From the NCBI GenBank assembly GCA_018384365.1, contig JAHAYX010000001.1:33475-97474 (forward strand): DNA of 64,000 bases. Direction: 5' to 3'. The notes below the pieces were generated by a model that searched no databases, was not told the DNA's origin, and saw only the letters and a list, made by a program, of their open reading frames with translations. The position numbers were made by a program, and so were the translations under genes. Origin of the DNA: Clostridiaceae bacterium. GTDB taxonomy: Bacteria; Bacillota; Clostridia; Oscillospirales; QAMX01. The number at the start of each line of letters is the position of its first letter. Positions within the stretch are counted from its first letter, which is position 1. Shown piece by piece: positions 11,568 to 52,796 of this stretch.

Positions 11568-13076
11568 TCAGTCCTCGATCATCACCGGGCGGATCTTATA
11601 GTAATCATCGCCCTCGCTGGACTCCATCAGCTTGATATCCGTGTGGTAGCACATCTCAAAGAGCTTTGACATACGCGTGACGAAGATAAACTTGACGCCG
11701 ATTCGCGGGAAAATATTCAGAATGTCAAAAATACCGCGTGCGCCCTCCACATAAGCGGTAGTCTGGAACGTTTCGTTCAGCAGTACCAGAGAGTGCGGTT
11801 TGATGTTGTCGATGATATGCGCAACCTCCTGCACTTCGCCTTCAAAACGGCCTGCGGTATCGCCAACCACAAATTCCTTCTCCGCCGAGGAGAACTGCGT
11901 GAAGATGGCATTGCGCATACTGATGCTTGCGCGACGCGCACAGACCGGCAGACCCGACTGTGCCATAATCTGCGCCGTTCCGATCGAGCGCAGATAAACC
12001 GTTTTTCCTGTGGAGTTGTTGCCGCGGATCAGAATACCGATCTCATCGCTGGAAAGCCGCACGCTGTTTGTGACAATGGTATCGCGTGTTTTGCCTTCTG
12101 CCAGCAGCAGACAGTCATACAGGCCATCTGCATTGAAAACCTCTGCTTCATGCGGGCGAATGCGTGGGATGCAGTAAGTCACATGTGCACGGCGCAGGTA
12201 ATTGATATAGTCCAGCGCACCTTCATAAAAGGAGAGTTCGTCGGAAAGGCCATAGAACATCTCGTAAACGTGCTCCGTCACTTCCGTCATGACCGTATAC
12301 ATCCGGAACAGCGCTTCATTCAACAGGAAATTGGCGTCATCAATCATGCCGTCGCCCAGATTGTACTCAGGCGCGCGTTCTGCACGGTTTTTCAGGTTTT
12401 TTACCACATTCCAAATTTTGCGATCCTTTGCCAGCTTTTCCAGTTCCGCAATGTTGATGAGGTCGCACGAGGTGACGCGCATGGTGTCATCCATGCCGGC
12501 CATCACGGTAAACTCATACTGCGGCGGCGAATACAGCGTGAAAAGTGTGGCAATCTCCACAACCTCGTTCAGTGAGTCGTTGTTGATCATTTCCACGCAA
12601 TATTCCTTGATTGCGATCAGCCCCGGCGCCGTGAGCTCATATTTGTCGAGGATTTCGTAGGCGGATTTGAAATAACCCGCAATCATCTTGGCAAATTTGG
12701 AACTGACCTTCAGAAGATCAAAGGTATATTCCATCAGCGCCTTAAAACTGACTGACGCGCCGAAGGGGTGCACATTGGAGCGCATCTCTCCCCAGTCGCT
12801 TTTGATCGTATCGTAGCGGCGGAACAGGCGCTTGAGTTCAAAAAGCAGCTGCGGCTGTTTCGTAAAGTTGTCCACCAATTCCTGGCGATAGGTGATATTT
12901 TCCTCCGAGTGCAGTGGGCGCGTGAGGACTTTCAAAAATATCTCTGCCCGCGATTCATCTGTGCAGACGGCATTGACAAGACGGTCCACGGAGAGGTTGT
13001 ACACCGCTTCCCGCATATCAGAGAGCGTTGCATAATCGGGCTGCTCCGGAGTTTTATATAACAGACTGAATTTCAT
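11568..13076 (-). CDS. MutS-related ATPase (domain III/V only), paralog B
   Basis: 502 aa. Walker A GNNSTGKTVYLRSIG. MutS-like ABC core ...TAGRFEGEVQEVAHII...SLVLLNETFQTTA. No mismatch-binding domain I and no Smr domain. Its ATG overlaps the stop of the upstream paralog (ATGA). Confidence 0.75.
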   Translation of the reverse strand: MKFSLLYKTPEQPDYATLSDMREAVYNLSVDRLVNAVCTDESRAEIFLKVLTRPLHSEENITYRQELVDNFTKQPQLLFELKRLFRRYDTIKSDWGEMRSNVHPFGASVSFKALMEYTFDLLKVSSKFAKMIAGYFKSAYEILDKYELTAPGLIAIKEYCVEMINNDSLNEVVEIATLFTLYSPPQYEFTVMAGMDDTMRVTSCDLINIAELEKLAKDRKIWNVVKNLKNRAERAPEYNLGDGMIDDANFLLNEALFRMYTVMTEVTEHVYEMFYGLSDELSFYEGALDYINYLRRAHVTYCIPRIRPHEAEVFNADGLYDCLLLAEGKTRDTIVTNSVRLSSDEIGILIRGNNSTGKTVYLRSIGTAQIMAQSGLPVCARRASISMRNAIFTQFSSAEKEFVVGDTAGRFEGEVQEVAHIIDNIKPHSLVLLNETFQTTAYVEGARGIFDILNIFPRIGVKFIFVTRMSKLFEMCYHTDIKLMESSEGDDYYKIRPVMIED

Positions 13077-41896: not shown

Positions 41897-42088
41897 ATGG
41901 AAAATTTGAACACCTTGCTTCAGAACGCAGGAACGGCGGCCTGCATCAATTCACTGCCGCTTGCCATGGCCTATATTCCCCTCCAGAGATGGGAGGATAT
42001 CTATGATACGCAGACGGCGTTTGACCGCGGCACTATCTTCCGCGCGCTGGATAAGCCGTTTACGGGGAAGGGGGCCGAGAGGAAATGA
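41897..42088 (+). CDS. cotJA: Spore coat-associated protein CotJA
   Basis: 63 aa. LPLAMAYIPLQRWEDIYDTQTAFDRGTIFRALDKPF is the CotJA signature. Overlaps cotJB by 4 nt. Confidence 0.8.
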   Translation: MENLNTLLQNAGTAACINSLPLAMAYIPLQRWEDIYDTQTAFDRGTIFRALDKPFTGKGAERK

Positions 42089-42339
42089 GCGATATGGGCA
42101 ATCTGCTCCGTGATGTACAGATGGCGGAATTTGCGCTGGTTGAGGCCAACCTCTTCCTTGACACGCACCCTACCGACCCGAATGCGCTGGAATACTTCTG
42201 CAAATACCAGCAAATCCATGAAAAGGCCGTGGAGGCCTACACCGCAGTCTATGGCCCCCTGACCGCCATGCAGCACACCGGCGGCAGGTGGAAATGGACC
42301 GACGGACCGTTTCCGTGGGAACGCGCCGCAAACGTCTGA
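42085..42339 (+). CDS. cotJB: Spore coat protein CotJB
   Basis: 84 aa. LLRDVQMAEFALVEANLFLDTHPTDPNALEYF...YGPL is typical of CotJB. Confidence 0.85.
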   Translation: MSDMGNLLRDVQMAEFALVEANLFLDTHPTDPNALEYFCKYQQIHEKAVEAYTAVYGPLTAMQHTGGRWKWTDGPFPWERAANV

Positions 42340-42355: not shown

Positions 42356-42541
42356 ATGTGGATTTATGAGAAGAAATTAGAGTATCCTGTCAGCATCAAA
42401 ACACCCAATCCCAAGCTCGCCCTGGCAATCATCAGCCAGTTGGGCGGACCGGATTGCAGCAGCCTGCAGTTTTTGCCCGGGGATACAATAAAAACGCCGC
42501 CCCAGTGGGACGGCGCCTTCTTTTGGAGCTTTATGCTTTGA
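42356..42541 (+). pseudogene. cotJC: cotJC 5' segment. The first 33 codons are CotJC; the ORF then reads into the inserted element.
   Basis: MWIYEKKLEYPVSIKTPNPKLALAIISQLGGPD matches the CotJC N-terminus (B. subtilis MWVYEKKLQYPVKV...QYGGADGEL, from memory). Similarity is lost after codon 33 (CSSLQFLPG...stop). Confidence 0.85.
42446..42454. repeat. attL core (GG-A-CCGGAT)
   Basis: GGACCGGAT here versus GGTCCGGAT at 52290..52298. The junctions share GG plus CCGGAT. Confidence 0.6.
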
Positions 42542-43478
42542 AAAGGACTTTCAGCGAATTATAGTAATAGAACGGGACGAGGAGGTCCGTATGCGTGAAG
42601 TCGGACAGGGCGAAGAAGATGTTGTTCTTTACCGGATCCGTACCGTAGGAGAATACCTCGCCCTTCGGAATGTACTTCATCTGCTCGGTCATCGGCGCAA
42701 CGTCATTCGGGTAACCGTTGGAGGCGAAAATGAAGAACGGAAGCTCCGGATGCTCGCGCACCGGCTGCTGCACATAGTCCAGCACCTGCTCCGGCGTGAT
42801 TTCCTCGCGGATGGAGTGGCCGGCGGTTGTGTGGCAGCTCATCGGGGCAAACCATCTGAAATAGGCAAAGTCATTGTGGAAGATATTCCAGGTTGCAACG
42901 CTGCCGCGGGAATAGCCGCTGAAGGCGCGGTGGTCACGCGTGGCCCGGATGGCTTCTGGCGAAGCATCGGTGAGATAGGTGTTATACCGCAGTTCCACCG
43001 CCGGGATGATGTCCTCCACCACTTCGCGGTAGAAATTCGGCTTTGCATGGGGCCATCCGCCGTCGCCTGCCGGAACCTGACCGCTGCGGCGGCGTTCCTC
43101 CACGTCCTTCGTCACATCAAAGTAATAGGTCGTGGAAACGATGATGCAGGGGTCGATCTCGCCGGACTCGAACAGCATATCGAACAGTTTTCTGTTCTCC
43201 GGAACCGCAAAAATCTCCGGATCGCAGGTATTTCCGTGCTGATAGTACAGTACATTATACTTTCTGTCCTTGTCATTCGGGTCATAGCAGTATGGCAGAT
43301 AGACATTGCAGTATTTCGGATGGGTCACGCCGTCCTCATAAACCGAGGTCGTGTAATCCACGCGCTCCACACGGCCGATTTTTTTCGGTTCGCCGCGAAG
43401 TCCCTGGTTTTCCACGAATACGGTTTCAAAATCAATCACTTCTCCGGCCTTGTGGATGATGGTTTTCAGTTCGCTCAT
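42531..43478 (-). CDS. Alpha/beta-hydrolase esterase (putative-esterase / CE1-like family)
   Basis: 315 aa. YNVLYYQHG...AFSGYSRGS (GxSxG-type elbow). Resembles esterase-D/feruloyl-esterase-type proteins. Confidence 0.65.
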   Translation of the reverse strand: MSELKTIIHKAGEVIDFETVFVENQGLRGEPKKIGRVERVDYTTSVYEDGVTHPKYCNVYLPYCYDPNDKDRKYNVLYYQHGNTCDPEIFAVPENRKLFDMLFESGEIDPCIIVSTTYYFDVTKDVEERRRSGQVPAGDGGWPHAKPNFYREVVEDIIPAVELRYNTYLTDASPEAIRATRDHRAFSGYSRGSVATWNIFHNDFAYFRWFAPMSCHTTAGHSIREEITPEQVLDYVQQPVREHPELPFFIFASNGYPNDVAPMTEQMKYIPKGEVFSYGTDPVKNNIFFALSDFTHTDLLVPFYYYNSLKVLFKA

Positions 43479-43528
43479 GCTGTTTTTCTCCTTTCATTTT
43501 CTGTTTTTCCGCGTTTTTTCTTTCCTGT

Positions 43529-44284
43529 TCAGCCGCGTGCAAGCGGCGGATATACAATCCCGAGTTCCTCTCGGTACGCGCAGACATACCCCTTGAAATG
43601 TGGGTTTTCGAAGGATTTTTCCTCAATTTTGCCCGCAAGGATGTCATCGGCCAGCTTCGTAAGCCGCAGCAGAACATCCTTGCCGATCGGGGTTTCGCCG
43701 TGCGCAGGCCAGGTGAGGTCATATTCGCTGCCGAGATCCAGAATACGCTGCATCGATCTGCGGTATCCGGGCAGACCGTGCTGTGCGGCAAACGCCAGAA
43801 CCTCGCCGCGGCCACAGGTGTCGCCGGTGAAAAGCTGGCGGCGCTCCACGTCGAGAATACAGATGCTGCCGTTTGAGTGACCGGGCGTCAGGTACACGCG
43901 CAGGGTTCTGCCGCCGAGGTCGAACACGTGTCCGTCGTCAATTCCGGTGATCTCCAGCGGGACGGGGCGCGGCAGCGGACCGGGGCCTTTGCCGCTTGCA
44001 TCGCGGGCATAGCCTTCCAGATCCTCCTTTGCGATGTAACGCTCGGCAAAATCAGCGTTTCCGGCGATGTGGTCGCCATGGCTGTGGGTATTGACGACTG
44101 CGACCGGTTTCTCGGTCAGTCCGGCGACGATTCCGCCTAGATCAATATTCCCCAGGCCGGAGTCAATCAGTATGGCCCTGTTTTCGCCCTCCAACAGATA
44201 GCAGTACACGCCAAGGCGATGATTGGTTTCCTCAATCTGCCAGGTGTGTTCGTCCAGTTGTTTTACCGTGTACCCAATTTCCAT
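43529..44284 (-). CDS. MBL-fold metallo-hydrolase
   Basis: ORF 43529..44575. ATG at 44284 follows GGAGG. VNTHSHGDHIAGN (HxHxDH) and TPGHSNGS. 251 aa. Confidence 0.85.
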   Translation of the reverse strand: MEIGYTVKQLDEHTWQIEETNHRLGVYCYLLEGENRAILIDSGLGNIDLGGIVAGLTEKPVAVVNTHSHGDHIAGNADFAERYIAKEDLEGYARDASGKGPGPLPRPVPLEITGIDDGHVFDLGGRTLRVYLTPGHSNGSICILDVERRQLFTGDTCGRGEVLAFAAQHGLPGYRRSMQRILDLGSEYDLTWPAHGETPIGKDVLLRLTKLADDILAGKIEEKSFENPHFKGYVCAYREELGIVYPPLARG

Positions 44285-44364
44285 AACAAACCTCCGTTTC
44301 CATCCGGGGAAGCTCGATTCCCCGCCGTTTTTTCTGTCTTTTCCGGTTTCCCGGAGACGATGCC

Positions 44365-46107
44365 TTACGAATACAGGGAGCCGAGTATCAGGAATACCGC
44401 CGCCGTCCACGCCATACGGTTCGGATAGCGGGTGGACCAGCGTCCTTCGCTGACATCCTTTCCGGTTTTCGGATTGATCACCATCGGATAGCCGCTTGCC
44501 GCAAGCGCTCGGCAATAACGCAGCGCGATTTCCTTTGCCAGTTCGTCCTTGCCGCACGCACGCAGGCCAAGGCAAACCAACATCTGCGCAGGAGCCAGAA
44601 TCGGGCCGGCAGACCAGCCGGTTTCATGGTAATGATCGCTGTCGAGCCGCTCGCCCGCCAGGCCGTAAGGCGTCAGCCAGGCGCCCTCCTCGGAGAGCGC
44701 GGCGGTCATTTTCTCTATCATCTCCTGCGGCAGACGCTTGCCCAAAAGCAGCGGAACAAAGGACATGATCGAACCGCAATCCACCCACTCATGCGTCCCG
44801 CTGACGCGTGAGGTGAACTTTTCGCCGTTCCAGAAGAACGAAAGCGTGGTCTCCAGCATCCGGTCGGCGCGGGCCTTCCACTCCCGCATTTCATAAGTCT
44901 TTCCCAGGCGTCCGGCCAGCACCGCGAGTTGATCCATCGCCAGCACTAAATAGGTTGCAAGATCCGGCGCAGCGGTCGGTCCGCCCATTTTGAAGAAGGA
45001 ACTGTCGTCCCAGCCGGATTCATCGGCAGTATCGTACTGCACAATGCCGTCCTGATCCGTATCGCGGTAGGTGAGCCACCAGAACACCCATTTGGACAGC
45101 CCGTCATACAAAGTCAGCTGCTCCCGGCGCGTGGCAAAGGAGAAATCCGTAAATTCCTGCAAAAATTCCAGCGCAACGCCGTGAAACGGCGGCTTGGTTC
45201 CGCCGTAACTCTGCGAAGCGTCCGTCAGAATGTCCGCCAGCATGCCATACTCATCCTGATAATAAAAAACGGACAGCAGCAGTTCCCAGGCAAAGCGCGG
45301 ATTGCGATACTGGGCCATGGCGTGATAGCACTGCTGCCAGCTGGAGGTGCAGCGGTGCACGCCCTTGTTCATATAAATAATGTCCATGTCGTCGATGCGC
45401 ATGATATGCGACCAGATGAGATAGGCATTCAGGATGCGTGCCTCCGCGAATTCTTCGGAAAGCGGCGGAACGGTATCGAGATATTCGGAAAATTCCCGCT
45501 CGATGCCGGCAATGCAGCGGTCAAAGGCAGGGTATTTTTCCATACGCCAGCCGTTTGATTTATAAAGATGTACCGCCAGATCCACCTTGCCGGTCCCGTC
45601 CGGGCGGAACACGAATTTCGTCTCCTCCGGCACGCTGTTGATCACATCAAAGCCGGTGGAAACGTCCATTTCCCCGATGACCGGACAGAACAGCAGCTTC
45701 GGCACCGGGTTCATGATCACTTCCCAGCTTCCGTCGTTGCGGGTTTTGGCAATTTCGTGCGGAGCAAGCGCGGGAGAAAACACAACCTCCACATTCTCCG
45801 CTTCCATGCGCAGGATGCTGCCCTCCTGCAGGCAGATCCGCGCCGTGCCGCCGTCATAGGCAAGCGTCACGCACACGGGCGTTGCCGTTGCGCGGTAAGG
45901 CACCGTTTCCCCGTTGCGCACAAGCCGGACCGGGAACAGTCTGCCCGCGCGGGGTTTCCCGGCGGGACCCGCATTGTCCAGCCCGGAGAGCAGGGCACAG
46001 ACATAAAGCGTCTCGGCGCCGTCTTCCTCCCAGGCGCCGACATAGTAAAATGTACCGCGGCGTCCGTAGGAGATGCGGGTGAGATCATACTGAATTGTTT
46101 CAAACAT
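44365..46107 (-). CDS. Six-hairpin (alpha/alpha)6 glycoside hydrolase-like protein (GH63/trehalase/MGH-like)
   Basis: 580 aa. YDTADESGWDDSSFF and a C-terminal half rich in W/Y, as in clan GH-G enzymes. Family assignment not verified. Confidence 0.55.
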   Translation of the reverse strand: MFETIQYDLTRISYGRRGTFYYVGAWEEDGAETLYVCALLSGLDNAGPAGKPRAGRLFPVRLVRNGETVPYRATATPVCVTLAYDGGTARICLQEGSILRMEAENVEVVFSPALAPHEIAKTRNDGSWEVIMNPVPKLLFCPVIGEMDVSTGFDVINSVPEETKFVFRPDGTGKVDLAVHLYKSNGWRMEKYPAFDRCIAGIEREFSEYLDTVPPLSEEFAEARILNAYLIWSHIMRIDDMDIIYMNKGVHRCTSSWQQCYHAMAQYRNPRFAWELLLSVFYYQDEYGMLADILTDASQSYGGTKPPFHGVALEFLQEFTDFSFATRREQLTLYDGLSKWVFWWLTYRDTDQDGIVQYDTADESGWDDSSFFKMGGPTAAPDLATYLVLAMDQLAVLAGRLGKTYEMREWKARADRMLETTLSFFWNGEKFTSRVSGTHEWVDCGSIMSFVPLLLGKRLPQEMIEKMTAALSEEGAWLTPYGLAGERLDSDHYHETGWSAGPILAPAQMLVCLGLRACGKDELAKEIALRYCRALAASGYPMVINPKTGKDVSEGRWSTRYPNRMAWTAAVFLILGSLYS

Positions 46108-46331
46108 GGCGTCCCCTCATTTCCAAATTTCCATATTTTATCTTACCATACCCCGGTGCCGATTACAATGCAATTCTGTGGTTCCGTTACGATTGGTATA
46201 TTTTCAAACTCTCGCCGGGTTTTGGCTAAAACATCTAAAATTTTATCGCGCTCATCGGTTATCCTTGCCATTTTTCCGATAATGTGTTAACCTGTAATCA
46301 TAAAATGAGACACAGGAAAGGAACAGAAGCT

Positions 46332-47720
46332 ATGAATCGGTTTACATTTGGTGAGCGCGCGCCGCTGGAAAACGTCAATTTTGAAACCAAAACCAGGCTT
46401 CCTCCGATCAACGGCCTGAAGGAATGCCGCCAGGGCATTGTGCCCGGCATGGTCAACGTCTGGTATGAATATCTGCCTGCCGCTTATGACGGGAAAACCG
46501 CTCTGCCGCTGATTGTGCAAGTGCACGGCGGCGGGCACGACGGCCGCCGCTGGGCGGATTTCACGCTCTGGCATGTGCTGGCGGAGCGGCTCGGCCTGAT
46601 CGTCATTTACCCCAACTCCCCGGACTACGGTTCCTGGCACTGCGATGACCGCGATGTGGAGTATCTGTATCAGCTCATCGGCATTGTCTGTGAAAAATAC
46701 AACGTTGACCGTACCCGCATCTATATGCAGGGAATGTCCAACGGCGATATGATGACCTTAGCCTTCACCATGCAGCATCCCGAGGTGCTGGCGGCTGCAG
46801 GGTATTCCACCGGACCGTCTGCCGAAATCTACGTTGGCGACGAGCGCCCCACCGCTGCACTGCCGGCCATCCAGATGCGCGGCGAATATGACATCATTTT
46901 CCGCCTGCTCGACGAAGACCCGCTCGATGCCTATGAAACCCGCTATCGCATGAACGACTTCAACCGCGAAATCTGGATTGAAAAGAACGGGCTGGATTCC
47001 CTGCCGGATCTGACCTTCCGCGGCAAAGACAATTTCATGCGTTTCCGCGGCAAAAACGCCGATCTGATTAACTGGGAGGTCGTCGGCTGCGGCCATCGCG
47101 AACCGGCGGATATGGCACAGGTCTACTGGGATTGCCTCTATTCCGGATGCCGCCGCGTAGACGGAAAGCTTGTCTACTCGCCCTGCGAGGATGCACTGGA
47201 ACCGGATCAGGATATTGCGGTCATTGCGCTGGGCAGCCGCAAGGTCTACTTAAACGGGCGCATGGAGGAAATGACACCGATTGAGACCGGCGTTGTGCGC
47301 AGCTTTGACCCCGGCCCCGGCAACTACACCAAAACGGCAGGCGCGCATGAAATGCTGGAAACTCCCGCGCTTTGTGCGCCGGTGGAGTTCTTCCGCGCCG
47401 CCTTCGGCGCCGAAGTGCGCTATCTTGACGCGGGTGACCGTGCCGAAGTGTGCTTCCCGGACGGAAACCGCGCCATTTTCCACTCCAATTCCCTGCTTGT
47501 GGAGTATAACGGCAAGTTCCGCTCCATGCGCAAGCCCTGCACCTTGCTTTGCGGCACCTTCTATGTGCCCGTCGGCGAGTTCTGCGGCGATTTCCTGGGT
47601 AAATTTGTCTCCGAAGCATCCGACCTGATGCTGATCAGCGGACATTCGGCCATTCTGGGCCGTTATACCGCGCGTGTGCTGCGCAAGTTGCTGGGCGGCT
47701 ATGTCCGCGCCGTAAAATAA
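46332..47720 (+). CDS. Esterase of the PHB-depolymerase/feruloyl-esterase (LpqC-like) family with C-terminal copper-amine-oxidase-N-like domain
   Basis: ORF 46284..47720. ATG at 46332. VQVHGGGHDG...IYMQGMSNGDMM (GxSxG). Confidence 0.65.
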   Translation: MNRFTFGERAPLENVNFETKTRLPPINGLKECRQGIVPGMVNVWYEYLPAAYDGKTALPLIVQVHGGGHDGRRWADFTLWHVLAERLGLIVIYPNSPDYGSWHCDDRDVEYLYQLIGIVCEKYNVDRTRIYMQGMSNGDMMTLAFTMQHPEVLAAAGYSTGPSAEIYVGDERPTAALPAIQMRGEYDIIFRLLDEDPLDAYETRYRMNDFNREIWIEKNGLDSLPDLTFRGKDNFMRFRGKNADLINWEVVGCGHREPADMAQVYWDCLYSGCRRVDGKLVYSPCEDALEPDQDIAVIALGSRKVYLNGRMEEMTPIETGVVRSFDPGPGNYTKTAGAHEMLETPALCAPVEFFRAAFGAEVRYLDAGDRAEVCFPDGNRAIFHSNSLLVEYNGKFRSMRKPCTLLCGTFYVPVGEFCGDFLGKFVSEASDLMLISGHSAILGRYTARVLRKLLGGYVRAVK

Positions 47721-47752
47721 GAAGAAAAAACAATTATAAAGGAGTGTATGAT

Positions 47753-48850
47753 ATGGAATTTTCAGCTTATGCTTTTATCGGCCTGACCGGCCAGGAAATT
47801 TCCCGCTTTGAGATCCCTTGGGAGGGCGAAGCGCCCGCCATGGAAGCCATTCATCTGGAGGGTCCGGCTGTTGAAACAGACCGCATCCGGTATCTGAAGG
47901 AAACCCGCGGCACAGCGCCCGGCGATGTGACAGATGCTGTGCTCGACGGCGGTGTTTTGAAGATCACCGTTGTTCCCGCCACCACCCGCGCCGATTTCAC
48001 GCTGGTCATCGGTGAAAAGCGTATCGGCCGCGGGGAATTCACCATCCACACCAGAACCGTGGACGATAAATTTGCACGCCTTGAGGAAGGCCGCGTCATG
48101 TACCGTCTGTACACGCCGGAAGGCTCCGGCAAACGCCCGATGATCCTGTTCCTCCATGGCGGCGGAAACGGCGGCTATGAGGGCGAGCGCGATAACGAAA
48201 AGCACATCATTACGGACTACGGCCCCGTCAACTTCGCCGAGAATTATCCGGACATCTATGTCATGGCGCCGATGGCAGTGGAAGTGCGCCGTGATATGCG
48301 CAATTTCAACATGAATAACAGCTTTGCAAACAGCGATTCCTTCAATGTTCCGGGCTATGGCTGGAGCAGAGATTACCTCGGCCTGGTACTGGATATCATC
48401 CGCCGCATGGTTGCGGAAGGGAAAGTGGATGAAAAGCGCATTTACGTCACCGGTATGTCCATGGGCGGCGCCGGCACCATCCGTGCCATGTCCGTCGGTT
48501 CGGACCTGTTTGCCGCCTGCGTCCCGGTCTGCCCGACCATGACACCCGAGACCTTTTCCATCCTCAAGTCCATGCGCCGCCCCGTATGGGTCACCTCGGC
48601 CTATATCGACCACACGCTCTACCGGCACAAATATCTGGTGGACGCCGTCATGTCCATGCGCGACAACGGCAATAACAATGCACACCTGACGCTGTTCTCC
48701 CCGGAAGAGCTGGAAAAATACGATATTGCCATCACACCGAATCTGCCTTATCCGAAGTTGTTCAGCGAGAACCATGCAAGCTGGGTGCCTACCTATAAAA
48801 ACGAATACGGCATCATGTCCTGGCTGCTGAACCAGACCAAGGACGAATAA
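47753..48850 (+). CDS. Alpha/beta hydrolase (carboxylesterase/peptidase S9-like)
   Basis: ORF 47744..48850. ATG at 47753 is 8 nt after AAAGGAG. ILFLHGGGNGG...IYVTGMSMGGAG (GxSxG). Confidence 0.7.
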   Translation: MEFSAYAFIGLTGQEISRFEIPWEGEAPAMEAIHLEGPAVETDRIRYLKETRGTAPGDVTDAVLDGGVLKITVVPATTRADFTLVIGEKRIGRGEFTIHTRTVDDKFARLEEGRVMYRLYTPEGSGKRPMILFLHGGGNGGYEGERDNEKHIITDYGPVNFAENYPDIYVMAPMAVEVRRDMRNFNMNNSFANSDSFNVPGYGWSRDYLGLVLDIIRRMVAEGKVDEKRIYVTGMSMGGAGTIRAMSVGSDLFAACVPVCPTMTPETFSILKSMRRPVWVTSAYIDHTLYRHKYLVDAVMSMRDNGNNNAHLTLFSPEELEKYDIAITPNLPYPKLFSENHASWVPTYKNEYGIMSWLLNQTKDE

Positions 48851-48990
48851 AATCTGCCTTTCTTTTCAAAAGGACGGTTGGTTCCTGCGGGATTTTCTGC
48901 GGAGCCAACCGTTCGCAGTCCTTTTCCCCGAAAGCATTCCAACCGGAGGGGATTTCCGCTGCGTTTCACGAGAGGGGAGTTTGATCAGTC

Positions 48991-50355
48991 TTGAAAACAA
49001 GTTCCAGAGATCTGACGCAGGGCAGCATCGCCAAACAGCTTTTGCTGTTTGCGCTGCCCATCTTCGCCGGACAGATCTTTCAGAATCTCTATAACAGCGT
49101 GGATTCCATCATCGTCGGGCAGGCCGTCGGCACAACGGCCCTTGCGGCAGTTTCCGCCAGCAGCGATATTTCCATGCTGCTCGTCGGCTTCTTCACGGGC
49201 CTTTCCACCGGCGCAGGCGTTCTTTTTTCGCGTTTCTTCGGCGCAAAAGACGAGCAGAACCTGCACGACGCCATCCACACCGCCATCACCTTTTCCCTGC
49301 TCTTCGGCGTCCTCATCGCAGGCGCCGGTATCTTCTTTTCGCCGATGCTGCTGCGTGTGGTCAACTGCCCGCAGGACGTATACCTCGAGGCGCTGGATTA
49401 TTTGCGCATTTATCTGATCGGCGTACTGTTTACCGCGATCTATAATGTTGGCGCGGGCGTTCTGCGCGCGGTCGGCGATTCTCGTACGCCGTTTATTTAC
49501 CTCGTGATTTCCAGCTGCTGCAACATTGCGCTGGACATTATTCTGGTTGCGCTGCTGCATCTGGGCGTTTCCGGCGCAGCGCTGGCCACAATTCTCTCCC
49601 AGTTCATCAGCGTCGTGCTGGTTTTCCGCCGGATGCTGCTGACACAGGACGTGTATAAGCTGATACCGCGCGACCTGAAGATTCACCGTGCGCTTTTGAA
49701 GGACATTCTGCGGCTTGGGCTTCCCGCTGCGATTCAGGCCTGCTTGATCGGCCTGAGCAATGTCTTTATTCAGCGTTATATCAACAGCTTCGGTTCCGCC
49801 GCCATGGCCGGTATGGGCGCGGGCAAACGGATCGACCGCTTTGTCGGTATGGTTGCGCAGTGCCTTGGCCTTGCCACAGCCACCTTTGTCGGACAAAATG
49901 TCGGCGCCGAGCGCCTCGACCGTGCCTTCCGGGGAATCCGCGTGGTGCTGCTCGTCTGCTTCAGTTATGTGCTCGTCGCAGGCTGCATCGTCTATCTGCT
50001 GGCCGAACCGCTGGTGCACATTTTCACAAACGACGAAAATGCCATTGCCTTTGGCGTCTCCATGATTCATGTCATGATGCCGTTCTACTTCTGTCAGGCG
50101 TTGAACCAGGTCTTTGCAAACGCCGTGCGCGGCTTCGGCAAGAGCTTTGTCGTGATGATCTGCAGTATCTCCGGCATGATCGTCTGCCGTCAGATCTTCC
50201 TCGCCATTATGATGAGTTTCTGGCACGATATCCGTATTCTCTATTTCAGCTTCCCCTTCGGCTGGATCTGCGCCTCCGGCGCTGTGATGGTCTATTATTT
50301 CTTCACCATCCGCAGAAAATATCCGGAGGAAGCCAGGCTCCGCCGGTCAGCATAA
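48991..50355 (+). CDS. MATE-family efflux transporter
   Basis: 454 aa, TTG start. DLTQGSIAKQLLLFALPIFAGQIFQNLYNSVDSIIVGQ is the canonical MATE N-terminus. 12 TM segments. Confidence 0.9.
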   Translation: MKTSSRDLTQGSIAKQLLLFALPIFAGQIFQNLYNSVDSIIVGQAVGTTALAAVSASSDISMLLVGFFTGLSTGAGVLFSRFFGAKDEQNLHDAIHTAITFSLLFGVLIAGAGIFFSPMLLRVVNCPQDVYLEALDYLRIYLIGVLFTAIYNVGAGVLRAVGDSRTPFIYLVISSCCNIALDIILVALLHLGVSGAALATILSQFISVVLVFRRMLLTQDVYKLIPRDLKIHRALLKDILRLGLPAAIQACLIGLSNVFIQRYINSFGSAAMAGMGAGKRIDRFVGMVAQCLGLATATFVGQNVGAERLDRAFRGIRVVLLVCFSYVLVAGCIVYLLAEPLVHIFTNDENAIAFGVSMIHVMMPFYFCQALNQVFANAVRGFGKSFVVMICSISGMIVCRQIFLAIMMSFWHDIRILYFSFPFGWICASGAVMVYYFFTIRRKYPEEARLRRSA

Positions 50356-50425
50356 ACTCCGGCGCACCGCCGTCTGCGCGGCGTCCCATCCAAAACAGGG
50401 ACGCCGCGTTTTTTGCGTCCGTCCG

Positions 50426-50626
50426 CTATTCGGGCCGGATACTCCCCTCTCCACCCTCCGCCGCGCGGGAAAACAGGGCGCGTCCCGCATAGAATTCATT
50501 CAGAAAAGCCAGCATATTCCGGGTTGCCAGTTCCCGGCGCTGCGCTTCCGTCAGTTCGTGCACGGGAACAGGCCGTCCCTCCACATGCACAAAGGAAACC
50601 GAGTCCGGCATTTTCCGCTTCGCCAT
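50426..50626 (-). CDS. Small basic/acidic protein (66 aa), divergent from the recombinase
   Basis: AGGAGG 7 nt upstream of the ATG. MAKRKMPDSVSFVHVEGRPVPVHELTEAQRRELATRNMLAF... No family recognised. Confidence 0.55.
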   Translation of the reverse strand: MAKRKMPDSVSFVHVEGRPVPVHELTEAQRRELATRNMLAFLNEFYAGRALFSRAAEGGEGSIRPE

Positions 50627-50817
50627 ATTTCCGCCTCCTTTTGCAAAGCTGCGCTACTCTATGCACCGCGCAGCCTGTCTGATTCCTCATTTTTGGTCCC
50701 GGAGGCTTTTTCCGGTTCTGCGTATGCCCCATGGTGCGTATAGTTCTGGTGTTTTTCCTGCGGCGCACCCCGTTTGCAGTCCGGTGCGCCGTCAAATACC
50801 GGGAAGGAGGGAGCGCC

Positions 50818-52266
50818 ATGCCGGAGCAGAAAACCGCCGCGGCCTATATCCGCGTCAGCACTGAGGAGCAGACAGAATACTCCCCGGACGCACAGCTGGC
50901 CGAAATCCGCAAATATGCCGCGCGCGAGGGATATCGGCTTCCGGAGGAGTTTATTTACATAGACGAAGGGATCAGCGGCCGCGGTACCGCGCGGCGCGAG
51001 GCCTTTAACCGCATGATCGGCACGGCAAAGCAGCAGCCGAAGCCTTTTGACGCCATTCTGCTCTGGAAATTCTCGCGTTTTGCGCGCAACCGGGAGGACA
51101 GTGTGGTGTATAAATCCCTGCTGCGCCGCCAGCTCGGCATTGAGGTCGTTTCCGTTTCCGAGCCGGTGGGCGATGACAAGATGAGTGTGCTGATGGAAGC
51201 GCTGATCGAGGCCATGGACGAATACTACTCCATCAACCTGGCCGAAGAGGTCCGCCGCGGCATGACGGAAAAAGCACGGCGCGGCGGACTGCAGAACGGC
51301 GCGCCCTTTGGCTATCGGGTAGAGCGGAATGTTCTGGTTCCCCAGCCGGAGGAGGCGGCGCTTGTGCGCGGAATGTTCGAGCGGTTTGCCGCGGGCGAGG
51401 GGGTTTATCAGATTGCGCGGCAGCTGAACGCCGCCGGCGCACGCACCCTGCGCGGAAACCGGTTTGAAAGCCGGACCGTCGCCTATATTCTGCAAAATCC
51501 CGCGTATATCGGCAAACTGCGCTGGAATCCCGCCGGCCGCGGCGGCCGCAGAGAGAATCCGTCGGGCGGAATTCTCGCGGATGCACAGCATACGCCGCTT
51601 GTGGAGTCCGCGCTGTGGGAGCTGGTGCAGCGGCGCATGGAATCCGTGAAGGCGGCACAGCCGCAGCGGGCAAAGCCATCATCTTCACAGAAGGACTGGC
51701 TCTCCGGTCTTGTCCGCTGTCCGGCGTGCGGGAACACGCTGGTCTTTGTGAAACCGCATTACTATAAATGCGGCGGCTATATCAAGGGATCCTGCCCCTA
51801 TTCCCAGCACATAACGGCGGCGCTTTTAAAGGAGGCCCTGATCGCCCGGTTGGAGCAGGACATGGCGCATTTTGACCCGATTTCCTATACGGTCATAGCT
51901 GCCGGACAGTCGAATGCGCAGGAGGAACTGCTGCGGCAGCAGATTGCGGATCGGAAACGGCGTCTGGCCCGCCTGCGCGAGGCTTATCTGGCCGGACTTG
52001 AGTCCCTCGAAACATATCAGGCCGAACGGGAACAGGTCTGCGCGCAGCTTTCGGCGGCGCAGGAGGCATTGGCACACGCCGGCGTCCCGGCCTCCCGCGG
52101 CGAAATGCAGCAGCAGCTTGCCGCAGAGATTTCCTCCGCCCTTGGCATACTGCGCTCCGGCGCGCCGCCGGAACGCAAGCACAGCGCTGTGGCCGCCATT
52201 CTCTCCCGCTGCACGTGGGACCGTGCAGCCAACCGTCTGACGCTTTACTACCGCGCCAGTCTGTAA
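50818..52266 (+). CDS. Large serine recombinase (SpoIVCA/SprA-like architecture)
   Basis: ORF 50731..52266. ATG at 50818 follows GGAAGGAGGG. AAAYIRVSTEEQ catalytic serine motif, resolvase domain, recombinase domain, zinc ribbon WLSGLVRCPACGNTLVF...YYKCGGYIKGSC, and a coiled-coil C-terminus. 482 aa. Confidence 0.9.
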   Translation: MPEQKTAAAYIRVSTEEQTEYSPDAQLAEIRKYAAREGYRLPEEFIYIDEGISGRGTARREAFNRMIGTAKQQPKPFDAILLWKFSRFARNREDSVVYKSLLRRQLGIEVVSVSEPVGDDKMSVLMEALIEAMDEYYSINLAEEVRRGMTEKARRGGLQNGAPFGYRVERNVLVPQPEEAALVRGMFERFAAGEGVYQIARQLNAAGARTLRGNRFESRTVAYILQNPAYIGKLRWNPAGRGGRRENPSGGILADAQHTPLVESALWELVQRRMESVKAAQPQRAKPSSSQKDWLSGLVRCPACGNTLVFVKPHYYKCGGYIKGSCPYSQHITAALLKEALIARLEQDMAHFDPISYTVIAAGQSNAQEELLRQQIADRKRRLARLREAYLAGLESLETYQAEREQVCAQLSAAQEALAHAGVPASRGEMQQQLAAEISSALGILRSGAPPERKHSAVAAILSRCTWDRAANRLTLYYRASL

Positions 52267-52289
52267 ACCGCAGGTTGCCGCCATCCGGT

Positions 52290-52298
52290 GGTCCGGAT
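52290..52298. repeat. attR core (GG-T-CCGGAT)
   Basis: Counterpart of 42446..42454. Lies about 25 nt after the recombinase stop and immediately before CotJC codon GELGAS. Confidence 0.6.
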
Positions 52299-52796
52299 GG
52301 CGAGCTGGGCGCGTCGCAGCGGTATCTCAGCCAGCGTTATAGTATGCCGGATCCGAAAGTCGCAGGGCTTCTCACCGACATCGGAACGGAGGAACTGGCG
52401 CATCTTGAAATTGTCAGCGCAATCATTTATCAGCTCACGCGGAATATTTCGATTGACGACATCAAAAAAAGCAACTTTGAGCCGTACTATGTCGATCACA
52501 CGACCGGCGTTTATCCGCAGGCAGCGGCAGGCTGGCCCTTCACGGCAAAAACCTTCCAGTCCAAGGGCGATCCCATCACCGACCTGTTTGAGGACATGGC
52601 AGCAGAGCAGAAGGCGCGCACCACCTATGACAATCTGCTTCGCCTGATCGACGATCCCGACGTGCGCGACCCGATCAAATTCCTGCGGGAGCGCGAAATT
52701 GTGCACTTCCAACGCTTCGGCGAAGCGCTCGGCGCGGTGCAGGATGAGCTGGACTCCAAAAATTTCTACGCCTTCAACCCCGCTTTTGACAAATAA
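52299..52796 (+). pseudogene. cotJC: cotJC 3' segment (Mn-catalase-family spore coat protein, codons ~34 to end)
   Basis: GELGASQRYLSQRYSMPDPKVAGLLTDIGTEELAHLEIVSAIIYQL...DMAAEQKARTTYDNLL...FLREREIVHFQRF is colinear with CotJC. There is no plausible start or RBS of its own at the right position. Confidence 0.9.

Follow-up and report, generated by a model that had tools for sequence, protein, structure and literature searches.

The 64,000-nucleotide stretch of contig JAHAYX010000001.1 analysed here (hereafter the window) raises the question why cotJC, a spore-coat gene of the mother-cell sporulation set, is present as two fragments held apart by 9,844 bp of other DNA, and whether, and at which nucleotides, the two are ever joined again. 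The intervening segment (42448..52291) is in all likelihood a non-phage, cargo-carrying element residing in cotJC of an uncultured pig-gut member of the Oscillospiraceae, and contigs from public gut sequencing runs establish that restored cotJC exists in vivo and that the exchange takes place at a GG dinucleotide present at either end of the element. We consider it highly probable that the explanation set out below holds as a whole, namely that exchange at GG excises this cotJC element and restores the gene, under what we infer to be developmental control.

The split cotJC gene and its attachment sites

The cotJC gene is split after codon 30 of 198, within a cotJA-cotJB-cotJC operon, and the element lies inside its coding sequence. 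In silico removal of 42448..52291 fuses 42356..42447 to 52292..52796 and yields an in-frame open reading frame (ORF) of 597 nt specifying 198 amino acids (aa), which matches Pfam family PF05067 (Mn_catalase, E = 2.4e-51) and was assigned to be cotJC owing to this match and to its position after the CotJA- and CotJB-encoding genes. A first-pass annotation of the window had noted that crossover at GG or at the adjacent shared hexamer CCGGAT gives the same peptide, GGPDG, and the in-frame joined ORF bears this out. The host attachment site (attB) is very probably located in cotJC, with its centre at bases 1 and 2 of the codon for the second Gly in the conserved GG(P/A)DG motif.

The left attachment site (attL) reads ...CAGTTGGGC GG ACCGGATTGCAGCAGCCTGCAG, or with a longer left flank ...CAGCCAGTTGGGC GG ACCGGATTGCAGCAGCCTGCAG, while the right site (attR) reads CCGCAGGTTGCCGCCATCCGGT GG TCCGGATGG..., given also as CCGCAGGTTGCCGCCATCCGGT GG TCCGGATGGCGAG...; the end sequences and the positions of GG (42446-42447 and 52290-52291) are exactly those of the first-pass annotation. 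When the element ends are fused at GG, 18 of the 22 arm positions are reverse-complementary and the inner 7 are perfect, a count originally obtained by hand and now reproduced by computation. The best arm symmetry among 200,000 random fusions of window positions was 15/22, which excludes chance as the source of the 18/22. Arm symmetry extends to 25 nt (20/24 computed; 21/25 counted by reading), so that the element's own site (attP) is about 52 bp long; the earlier description of a near-symmetric site centred on GG is therefore retained, with its length of 46 bp corrected. Eight dinucleotides near the junction are common to attL and attR (starts -3, 0, +3 to +7 and +10), and the sole symmetric centre among them is GG at 0, the others giving 1-7/22, in agreement with the axis initially proposed. 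Under a GG crossover the predicted junction words are TTGGGCGGTCCGGATGGCG for attB and CATCCGGTGGACCGGATTGC for attP.

These sites are comparable to those of the large serine integrases of phages (A118/LI, phiC31, Bxb1), where attP is pseudo-palindromic with half-sites of approximately 25 bp with which the recombinase and zinc-ribbon domains make contact, where the crossover dinucleotide is identical in attP and attB, and where attB is the shorter of the two sites, its zinc-ribbon motif lying 5 bp further inward (PMC3783163). The present site likewise has a pseudo-palindromic attP, 25-bp half-sites and a crossover dinucleotide; it differs in that attB falls within a protein-coding motif that is conserved throughout a bacterial class. 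A comparison of the arms by eye gave no clear motif shifted 5 bp towards the centre in attB.

The recombinase gene carried by the element specifies a protein with Resolvase (PF00239, E = 3.6e-28), Recombinase (PF07508, E = 3.1e-24) and Zn_ribbon_recom (PF13408, E = 1.1e-08) domains, which matches the PHROG 95 integrase family with E = 1.4e-101 and whose catalytic motif Y-I-R-V-S-T, including R13, V14, S15 and T16, is invariant among 26 aligned relatives. Its start at 50815 is indicated by homologues, which cover 94% of the long ORF, and its stop codon, TAA (52264-52266), runs into the outer edge of the P arm. Pfam annotation revealed no phage, conjugation or replication genes inside the element, which has a GC content of 57.4% as compared to 55-56% for the flanks. 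The element is a large-serine-recombinase sporulation-gene-intervening element, of a class exemplified by skin, SPbeta/spsM, gin, vfbin and vrin, and the features by which membership of that class can be tested were all found.

The same 9.8-kb element is present in sister strains (L105-L108) at 97.8% identity and with identical cores, and the attP arm symmetry of L105 and L106, as counted from their sequences, is about 23/25. The sister-strain arms co-vary (GGCT/GGCT and CCGCAG/CCGCAG in L105, GGTT/GGTT in L106), as would be expected of arms that are read by a single protein surface. The attP arms of the window (42448-42472 and 52265-52289) are hybrid in this respect, with GGTT in P and GGCT in P', which could reflect selection for symmetry, or arms having been reshuffled between variants as elements excised and reintegrated.

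Metagenome contigs of two other species (L091 and L083) carry an uninterrupted cotJC with the same CA(G/A)TTGGGCGGNCCGGATGGCGAG. At +2 one of them has A and the other C, and the third position of the core-adjacent Gly codon is thus freely variable among hosts.

Rejoined cotJC in vivo and the position of the exchange

The window sequence is present in pig-gut metagenomes, and six of eight runs labelled as metatranscriptomes (three studies; X25, X27, X28, X29, X30 and X31) contain contigs in which 42445 runs directly into 52290, with exactly 9,844 bases left out and just two letters, GG, fitting both sides. The joined sequence reads ...TTGGGC GG TCCGGATGG..., in which C at -1 is the left-side base and T at +2 the right-side base; the exchange is consequently confined to the two G residues, and a CCGGAT crossover, which would give A at +2, is excluded. 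A fourth study, P11, contributes three runs with RNA-like coverage, zero over the recombinase, that carry the joint (X17, X20 and X47) and two with even, DNA-like coverage and integrated junctions only (X43 and X45). Joined cotJABC transcripts thus occur in nine public runs from four studies, the 3' fragment of cotJC being transcribed within the joined mRNA, and the joint is found in 9 of 11 RNA or RNA-like runs as against none of 12 DNA or DNA-like runs. In X31 the joint has a depth of 177, compared with 5-13 over the cargo genes and 0 over the recombinase. A chimeric assembly path as the source of the joint is implausible, judging from the at most eight bases that attL and attR share around the junction, far below the 31-letter assembly word. 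Junction sequencing had been proposed at the outset as the decisive check, and the RNA contigs in effect provide it, placing the exchange inside 42446-42447 / 52290-52291.

The same position emerges from related elements. A scan of one genome per species identified 79 loci with recombinase relatives of 41-57% identity, hosted mostly by Oscillospiraceae and other Clostridia, and in 73 of these a cotJC fragment directly follows the recombinase stop codon. For the window and six relatives with both ends in reach, attL and attR were aligned in the cotJC sense and identical dinucleotides listed; GG at position 0 is the one dinucleotide that all seven admit, starts from -2 to +2 other than 0 being ruled out by the window, those from +3 to +5 by L021 and that at -3 by L074. 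The symmetry of the reconstructed attP about GG is 20, 15, 15, 21, 22, 15 and 19 of 24 in the seven elements, and that of the reconstructed attB is weak (6-14 of 24). Intact P-GG-P' sites, 15-17/22 symmetric, directly follow recombinase relatives at L018:3419-3464, L044:3988-4033, L060:8973-9018 and L094:5340-5366. The assignment of GG as the crossover is thus supported by three independent lines, the full recombinase domain set, the seven-element comparison and the RNA junctions, all of which agree with the serine-integrase attP that the first-pass annotation had proposed.

An exchange within CCGGAT (42449-42454 / 52293-52298) instead of GG would make use of the longest identical stretch of attL and attR, and would restore the same protein. 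It is nevertheless extremely improbable, given that centres within the hexamer produce an asymmetric attP (1-7/22), that rejoined cotJC in nine runs has the attR-side T at +2 where A is predicted, that L021 and L074 hold no admissible dinucleotide at +3 to +5, and that GGCGGACCGGATGG or GGTGGTCCGGATTG would be required at the attB and attP junctions, which the junction sequence already refutes.

The restored gene was seen in RNA, and DNA-level excision is inferred from the RNA contigs, as no excised DNA or circle was found. In the eight DNA-labelled runs contigs cross attL, attR or both in integrated form, and in none of them is the element left out; the excised form was absent from the contigs of all 12 DNA or DNA-like runs, although assemblies drop rare variants and its absence from the samples does not follow. 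An exact-pattern scan of metagenome contigs for an empty attB of the window's species, and one of viral contigs for the circular attP, returned nothing, and a degenerate four-site pattern scan returned only the cotJC of other species, an attR-like site (L082), the intact attP of a distant relative (L094) and unrelated soil sequences. The split of 9/11 versus 0/12 is what would be expected if cotJ mRNA comes from a rearranged chromosome in a minority of terminally differentiating cells, and constitutes indirect evidence as regards DNA.

Several observations weigh against the explanation favoured here. The symmetry of the attB arms is weak (9/22); the library type of P11 is unrecorded, its runs being classed as RNA-like or DNA-like from the coverage pattern alone; neither contig nor read of an excised attB or circular attP of the window's element was found in DNA; no contig covers the 66-aa ORF described below or the recombinase (50333-52187) in any RNA or RNA-like run; and no empty attB of the same species was found, an element-free co-existing strain being a possible source of the joined transcripts, which would leave the crossover position unchanged.

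That last possibility, in which the joint stems from co-existing strains with a naive attB and the element may be a fixed insertion inactivating cotJC, agrees with the failure to see excised DNA or a circle and with the origin of most RNA and DNA runs from different samples. We judge it distinctly unlikely, since a contig of the empty site occurs in none of the 12 DNA or DNA-like runs while the joint occurs in 9 of 11 RNA or RNA-like ones, since the joined P11 runs (X17, X20 and X47) share their left-flank single-nucleotide polymorphism haplotype with the integrated run X45 (and X43), since transcripts of the element's cargo co-occur with the joint in X28-X31, and since sister strains have conserved the recombinase, the 66-aa ORF and the two att arms, all of which are intact. 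In X17 a contig with integrated attL (depth 4.9) is found alongside a joined one (depth 17.4). Even with naive strains present, the comparison of attB with attL and attR would still map the exchange to GG.

Restriction of the joined form to RNA-derived or RNA-like contigs would also be observed if the element were removed from RNA by intron-like splicing. To this we assign a vanishingly small probability: the element bears the signature of site-specific DNA recombination, in that its genes lie on both strands, its serine recombinase is complete, its att arms are symmetric and the overlap is 2 bp, relatives show an intact attP and a tandem attL-attP-attR arrangement in DNA, and intron features were not seen in passing, no dedicated search for them having been made. 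Excision of the element from DNA by its recombinase accordingly remains the reading that we prefer.

Three further observations were made on the same runs. Contigs over the cargo hydrolase genes (42531-50355) in gut metatranscriptomes are of low depth, up to 13 in X31. In one RNA contig of X30, position 52123 leads back to 42119 across 13 letters that have no match (TTCTCGTCAAACG); this link does not fall on the att sites and probably arose through misassembly or template switching. A joint skipping 10107 bases (42375 to 52483; X3 and X25) has 20 matching letters on one side and was rejected, being taken as a partial alignment of the uninterrupted cotJC of another species.

Table 1. Coordinates, in window numbering, of the cotJ operon, the intervening element and its attachment sites
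Feature	Coordinates	Strand	Description
cotJA	41897..42088	+	63 aa, first in cotJ operon; Pfam PF11007 CotJA, E = 3.3e-17
cotJB	42085..42339	+	84 aa; Pfam PF12652 CotJB, E = 2.3e-26
cotJC 5' fragment	42356..42447	+	codons 1-30 and two bases (crossover GG) of Gly31
attL	42421..42472	+	host B arm 42421-42445, GG 42446-42447, element P' arm 42448-42472 (ACCGGATTGCAGCAGCCTGCAGTTT)
Intervening element	42448..52291	.	9,844 bp; one GG copy assigned to element by convention
Cargo block, six genes	42531..50355	.	Pfam; gene lengths adjusted to calls in sister locus L105
Esterase-like cargo gene	42531-43478	-	
Metallo-beta-lactamase fold cargo gene	43529-44284	-	
MGH1-like glycoside hydrolase cargo gene	44365-46107	-	
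PHB-depolymerase-like esterase cargo gene	46332-47720	+	
S9/PETase-like hydrolase cargo gene	47744-48850	+	
MATE efflux cargo gene	48991-50355	+	
66-aa ORF	50426..50626	-	candidate recombination directionality factor
Promoter-like motif upstream of 66-aa ORF	50655..50684	-	AATCAGACAGGCTGCGCGGTGCATAGAGTA: SpoIIID-box-like GACA, 12 nt, CATAnnnT -10
Large serine recombinase	50815..52266	+	483 aa from ATG at 50815; maximal ORF starts 50731
attR	52265..52316	+	element P arm 52265-52289 (AAACCGCAGGTTGCCGCCATCCGGT), GG 52290-52291, host B' arm 52292-52316
cotJC 3' fragment	52290..52796	+	GG of Gly31, codons 32-198, stop

A candidate directionality factor and its possible control

Recombination between attL and attR by serine integrases requires a recombination directionality factor (PMC3783163), and the 66-aa ORF of the element is the only gene other than the recombinase that is conserved across the window's recombinase subclade despite differing cargo. 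In large serine recombinases directionality is controlled by a coiled-coil motif that is inserted in the zinc-ribbon domain. A profile search found homologues at 32 loci, corresponding approximately to the subclade of at least about 46% recombinase identity, always inside the element, upstream of the recombinase and on the opposite strand, and next to cargo as diverse as an M15-like peptidase (L021), CAP-domain and Cys-rich proteins (L045) and a VWA/CsxB protein (L101-L104). A large protein database holds three close relatives only, all unnamed.

Upstream of these homologues a family consensus, gAATAGGACAagCCgg...CATAGggT, was recognised. The strict pattern GAC[AG]-N12-[AC]ATA occurs in 15 of 29 distinct upstream regions as against 0.6% of background windows (binomial P ~4e-26, a value that overstates independence, these regions being related by descent). 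A CATA...T -10 element is characteristic of the mother-cell factors sigmaE and sigmaK, and TAGGACAA fits the Bacillus SpoIIID box WWRRACAR. A scan of the region between the 66-aa ORF and the recombinase for a sigma-70-type promoter gave no match.

The 66-aa protein is probably the directionality factor, with a promoter that would restrict excision to the mother cell, a proposal based on conserved synteny, the upstream motif and the precedents of CD1234 and GirX described below. Set against this proposal are the absence of the 66-aa protein family from Pfam and PHROG, the failure to detect homologues in the more distant recombinase clades, the common descent of the upstream regions, and the reliance of the promoter assignment on general consensus sequences.

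The mechanism that we propose, much of it predicted from sequence, would begin with recognition by the recombinase of the approximately 52-bp attP, composed of two 25-bp near-symmetric arms flanking the non-palindromic GG. Excision would recombine attL with attR by staggered cleavage at GG and subunit rotation, releasing a circle that carries attP and restoring the intact 198-aa cotJC. It would be confined to the sporulating mother cell, its direction set by the conserved 66-aa protein as a putative recombination directionality factor expressed from a predicted mother-cell promoter of the sigmaE/sigmaK type with a SpoIIID-like box, and the element would thereby stay integrated in the germ line.

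The closest parallel in description is gin, an element in gerE of Bacillus cereus ATCC 10987, for which the recombinase GirC acts together with GirX, a protein of 42 aa that is required for excision and not for integration (PMC5595907). Both are non-prophage elements in a mother-cell sporulation gene that encode a large serine recombinase and a very small protein lacking recognisable motifs, and the gin att site is also an imperfect inverted repeat whose cleavage dinucleotide was predicted from the centre of symmetry (PMC5595907). They differ in target (cotJC versus gerE), in host (a gut Oscillospiraceae anaerobe versus Bacillus), in cargo and in the size of the accessory protein, here 66 aa and likened to GirX by description; moreover, excision and factor dependence are experimental findings for gin and are predicted here from sequence and RNA contigs.

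In Clostridioides difficile the skin element in sigK is excised by the constitutively expressed recombinase CD1231, with the 72-aa directionality factor CD1234 being dependent on sigmaE and SpoIIID (PMC5025042). As with this element and with skin of Bacillus subtilis (SpoIVCA), where a large serine recombinase excises the element from a sporulation gene in the mother cell, the window's element encodes a large serine recombinase and interrupts a sporulation gene. The factor of approximately 70 aa that C. difficile expresses from a sigmaE promoter with a SpoIIID box is mirrored here by the CATA-type -10 and GACA box ahead of the 66-aa ORF. The target gene is different, skin is prophage-like, and the regulation of the present element is predicted from sequence. 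The SPbeta prophage in spsM of B. subtilis uses the serine integrase SprA and the small directionality factor SprB to rejoin a sporulation gene (PMC5499854, PMC4191935). The window's element would share with that system a serine integrase rejoining a sporulation gene and a small directionality factor, here a candidate. SPbeta is an active phage of about 134 kb, unlike the present element, which contains no phage genes.

The cotJC gene itself has been recorded among the sites into which phage- or transposon-related elements integrate (Abe et al. 2013, as cited in bioRxiv 10.1101/2021.11.22.469490). No description of cotJC att sites, their crossover or the rejoining of the gene in vivo was found in the searchable literature, the original article of Abe et al. 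2013 being known to us by citation only.

Alternatively, excision might serve horizontal transfer, or amount to stochastic island loss, with no tie to sporulation and with a 66-aa protein unrelated to directionality. The element is clearly mobile, with metabolic cargo, many hosts and insertions in both orientations, and intact attP forms exist on separate contigs, all of which such an account would explain. It is nonetheless unlikely, as the element contains neither phage genes nor genes for conjugation or replication, sporulation-operon RNA is rich in the joined form, which is undetectable in DNA assemblies, a CATA-type promoter motif is conserved ahead of the 66-aa ORF, and the characterised elements in mother-cell sporulation genes all excise developmentally. 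Developmental excision therefore continues to be favoured in what follows.

Related elements, polarity and a second site in cotJC

Related elements occupy this site, in one orientation or the other, in at least 70 loci of Oscillospiraceae and other Clostridia. Among the related loci, 43 have the arrangement of the window, that is P arm, GG and the 3' part of cotJC, and 27 matched P arm, CC and the reverse complement of the 5' part of cotJC, of which 26 are cotJC junctions (L035 was excluded). In these 26 opposite-orientation loci the core is inverted relative to the recombinase gene. The sequence of recombinase-proximal arm followed by GG in the sense orientation (43) or CC in the opposite one (26) fits the polarity rule of these integrases, although it provides no independent test, the host base pair being fixed. 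For the intact attP sites of L018, L044 and L094 an integrated copy of the same element was matched only in the case of L018, with L017 (both GG, orientation a).

Orientation of insertion changes at least about 19 times on a rough neighbour-joining tree of the recombinases, and differs even between near neighbours (L058/L075, L068/L054 and L039/L067); the 2-bp core flips between GG and CC relative to the recombinase gene, with little change in the P arms. The order in L060 is attL, element copy, attP, element copy, attR, which represents either a tandem duplication or an assembly of integrated and circular forms. L094, on a contig of 43.5 kb, is possibly a larger element in unintegrated form.

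A second insertion hotspot in cotJC lies approximately 100 bp further in, at the codons for T-D-I-G-T-E-E, with the junction after ..GATATCGGTAC; the corresponding region of the window (about 52381-52395) is uninterrupted. It is occupied in L003, L004, L006, L013, L016, L025, L039, L058, L059, L061, L068, L071, L072, L077 and L102, and in genomes with this second insertion cotJC is doubly interrupted, so that two excisions would be needed.

Taken jointly, these data may describe a large uncharacterised family of recombinase elements that use the same cotJC GG across gut Oscillospiraceae, Ruminococcus-like bacteria and other Clostridia, in which subclade-specific factors of about 60 aa with SpoIIID/sigmaE-type promoters would set the direction, polarity flips (at least about 19) by inversion of only the 2-bp core, and the gene is often shared with a second, unrelated recombinase element, a reading that we consider about equally likely to hold or to fail. 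If it is true, developmental gene reassembly, sometimes with two excisions per gene, would be routine in gut anaerobes and visible in metatranscriptomes.

Developmental rearrangement of this kind is known already and the inference is a textbook one; what is added here is evidence obtained in vivo for an uncultured anaerobe of the gut, the size of the family with its polarity flips, a candidate new family of directionality factors together with a conserved promoter motif, and the second hotspot. The locus offers a fully specified pair, consisting of a recombinase with its 52-bp attP, the cotJC attB, the GG core and a candidate directionality factor, with the junction verified in vivo without culture, and it shows that, for uncultured spore-formers of the gut, public metatranscriptomes can take the place of junction sequencing in the study of developmental DNA rearrangements. 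The variation found in nature, with many P arms for one conserved attB, covarying arms and flipped cores, is material for studying how integrases read their sites and how polarity evolves. As regards annotation, split cotJC genes in metagenome-assembled genomes of Oscillospiraceae should not be labelled pseudogenes.

The elements at the second hotspot are themselves diverse. That of L004 is 3,155 bp long and encodes a different serine recombinase, of 492 aa, together with a nucleoside-phosphorylase-like gene, AGGTAC being common to both of its junctions. In L102, from position 11622 onward, the hotspot is occupied by a large element encoding a polyvalent protein of 3,736 aa with LPD3, ART-PolyVal and MuF_C domains, a type of protein that is typical of phage or conjugative-element DNA.

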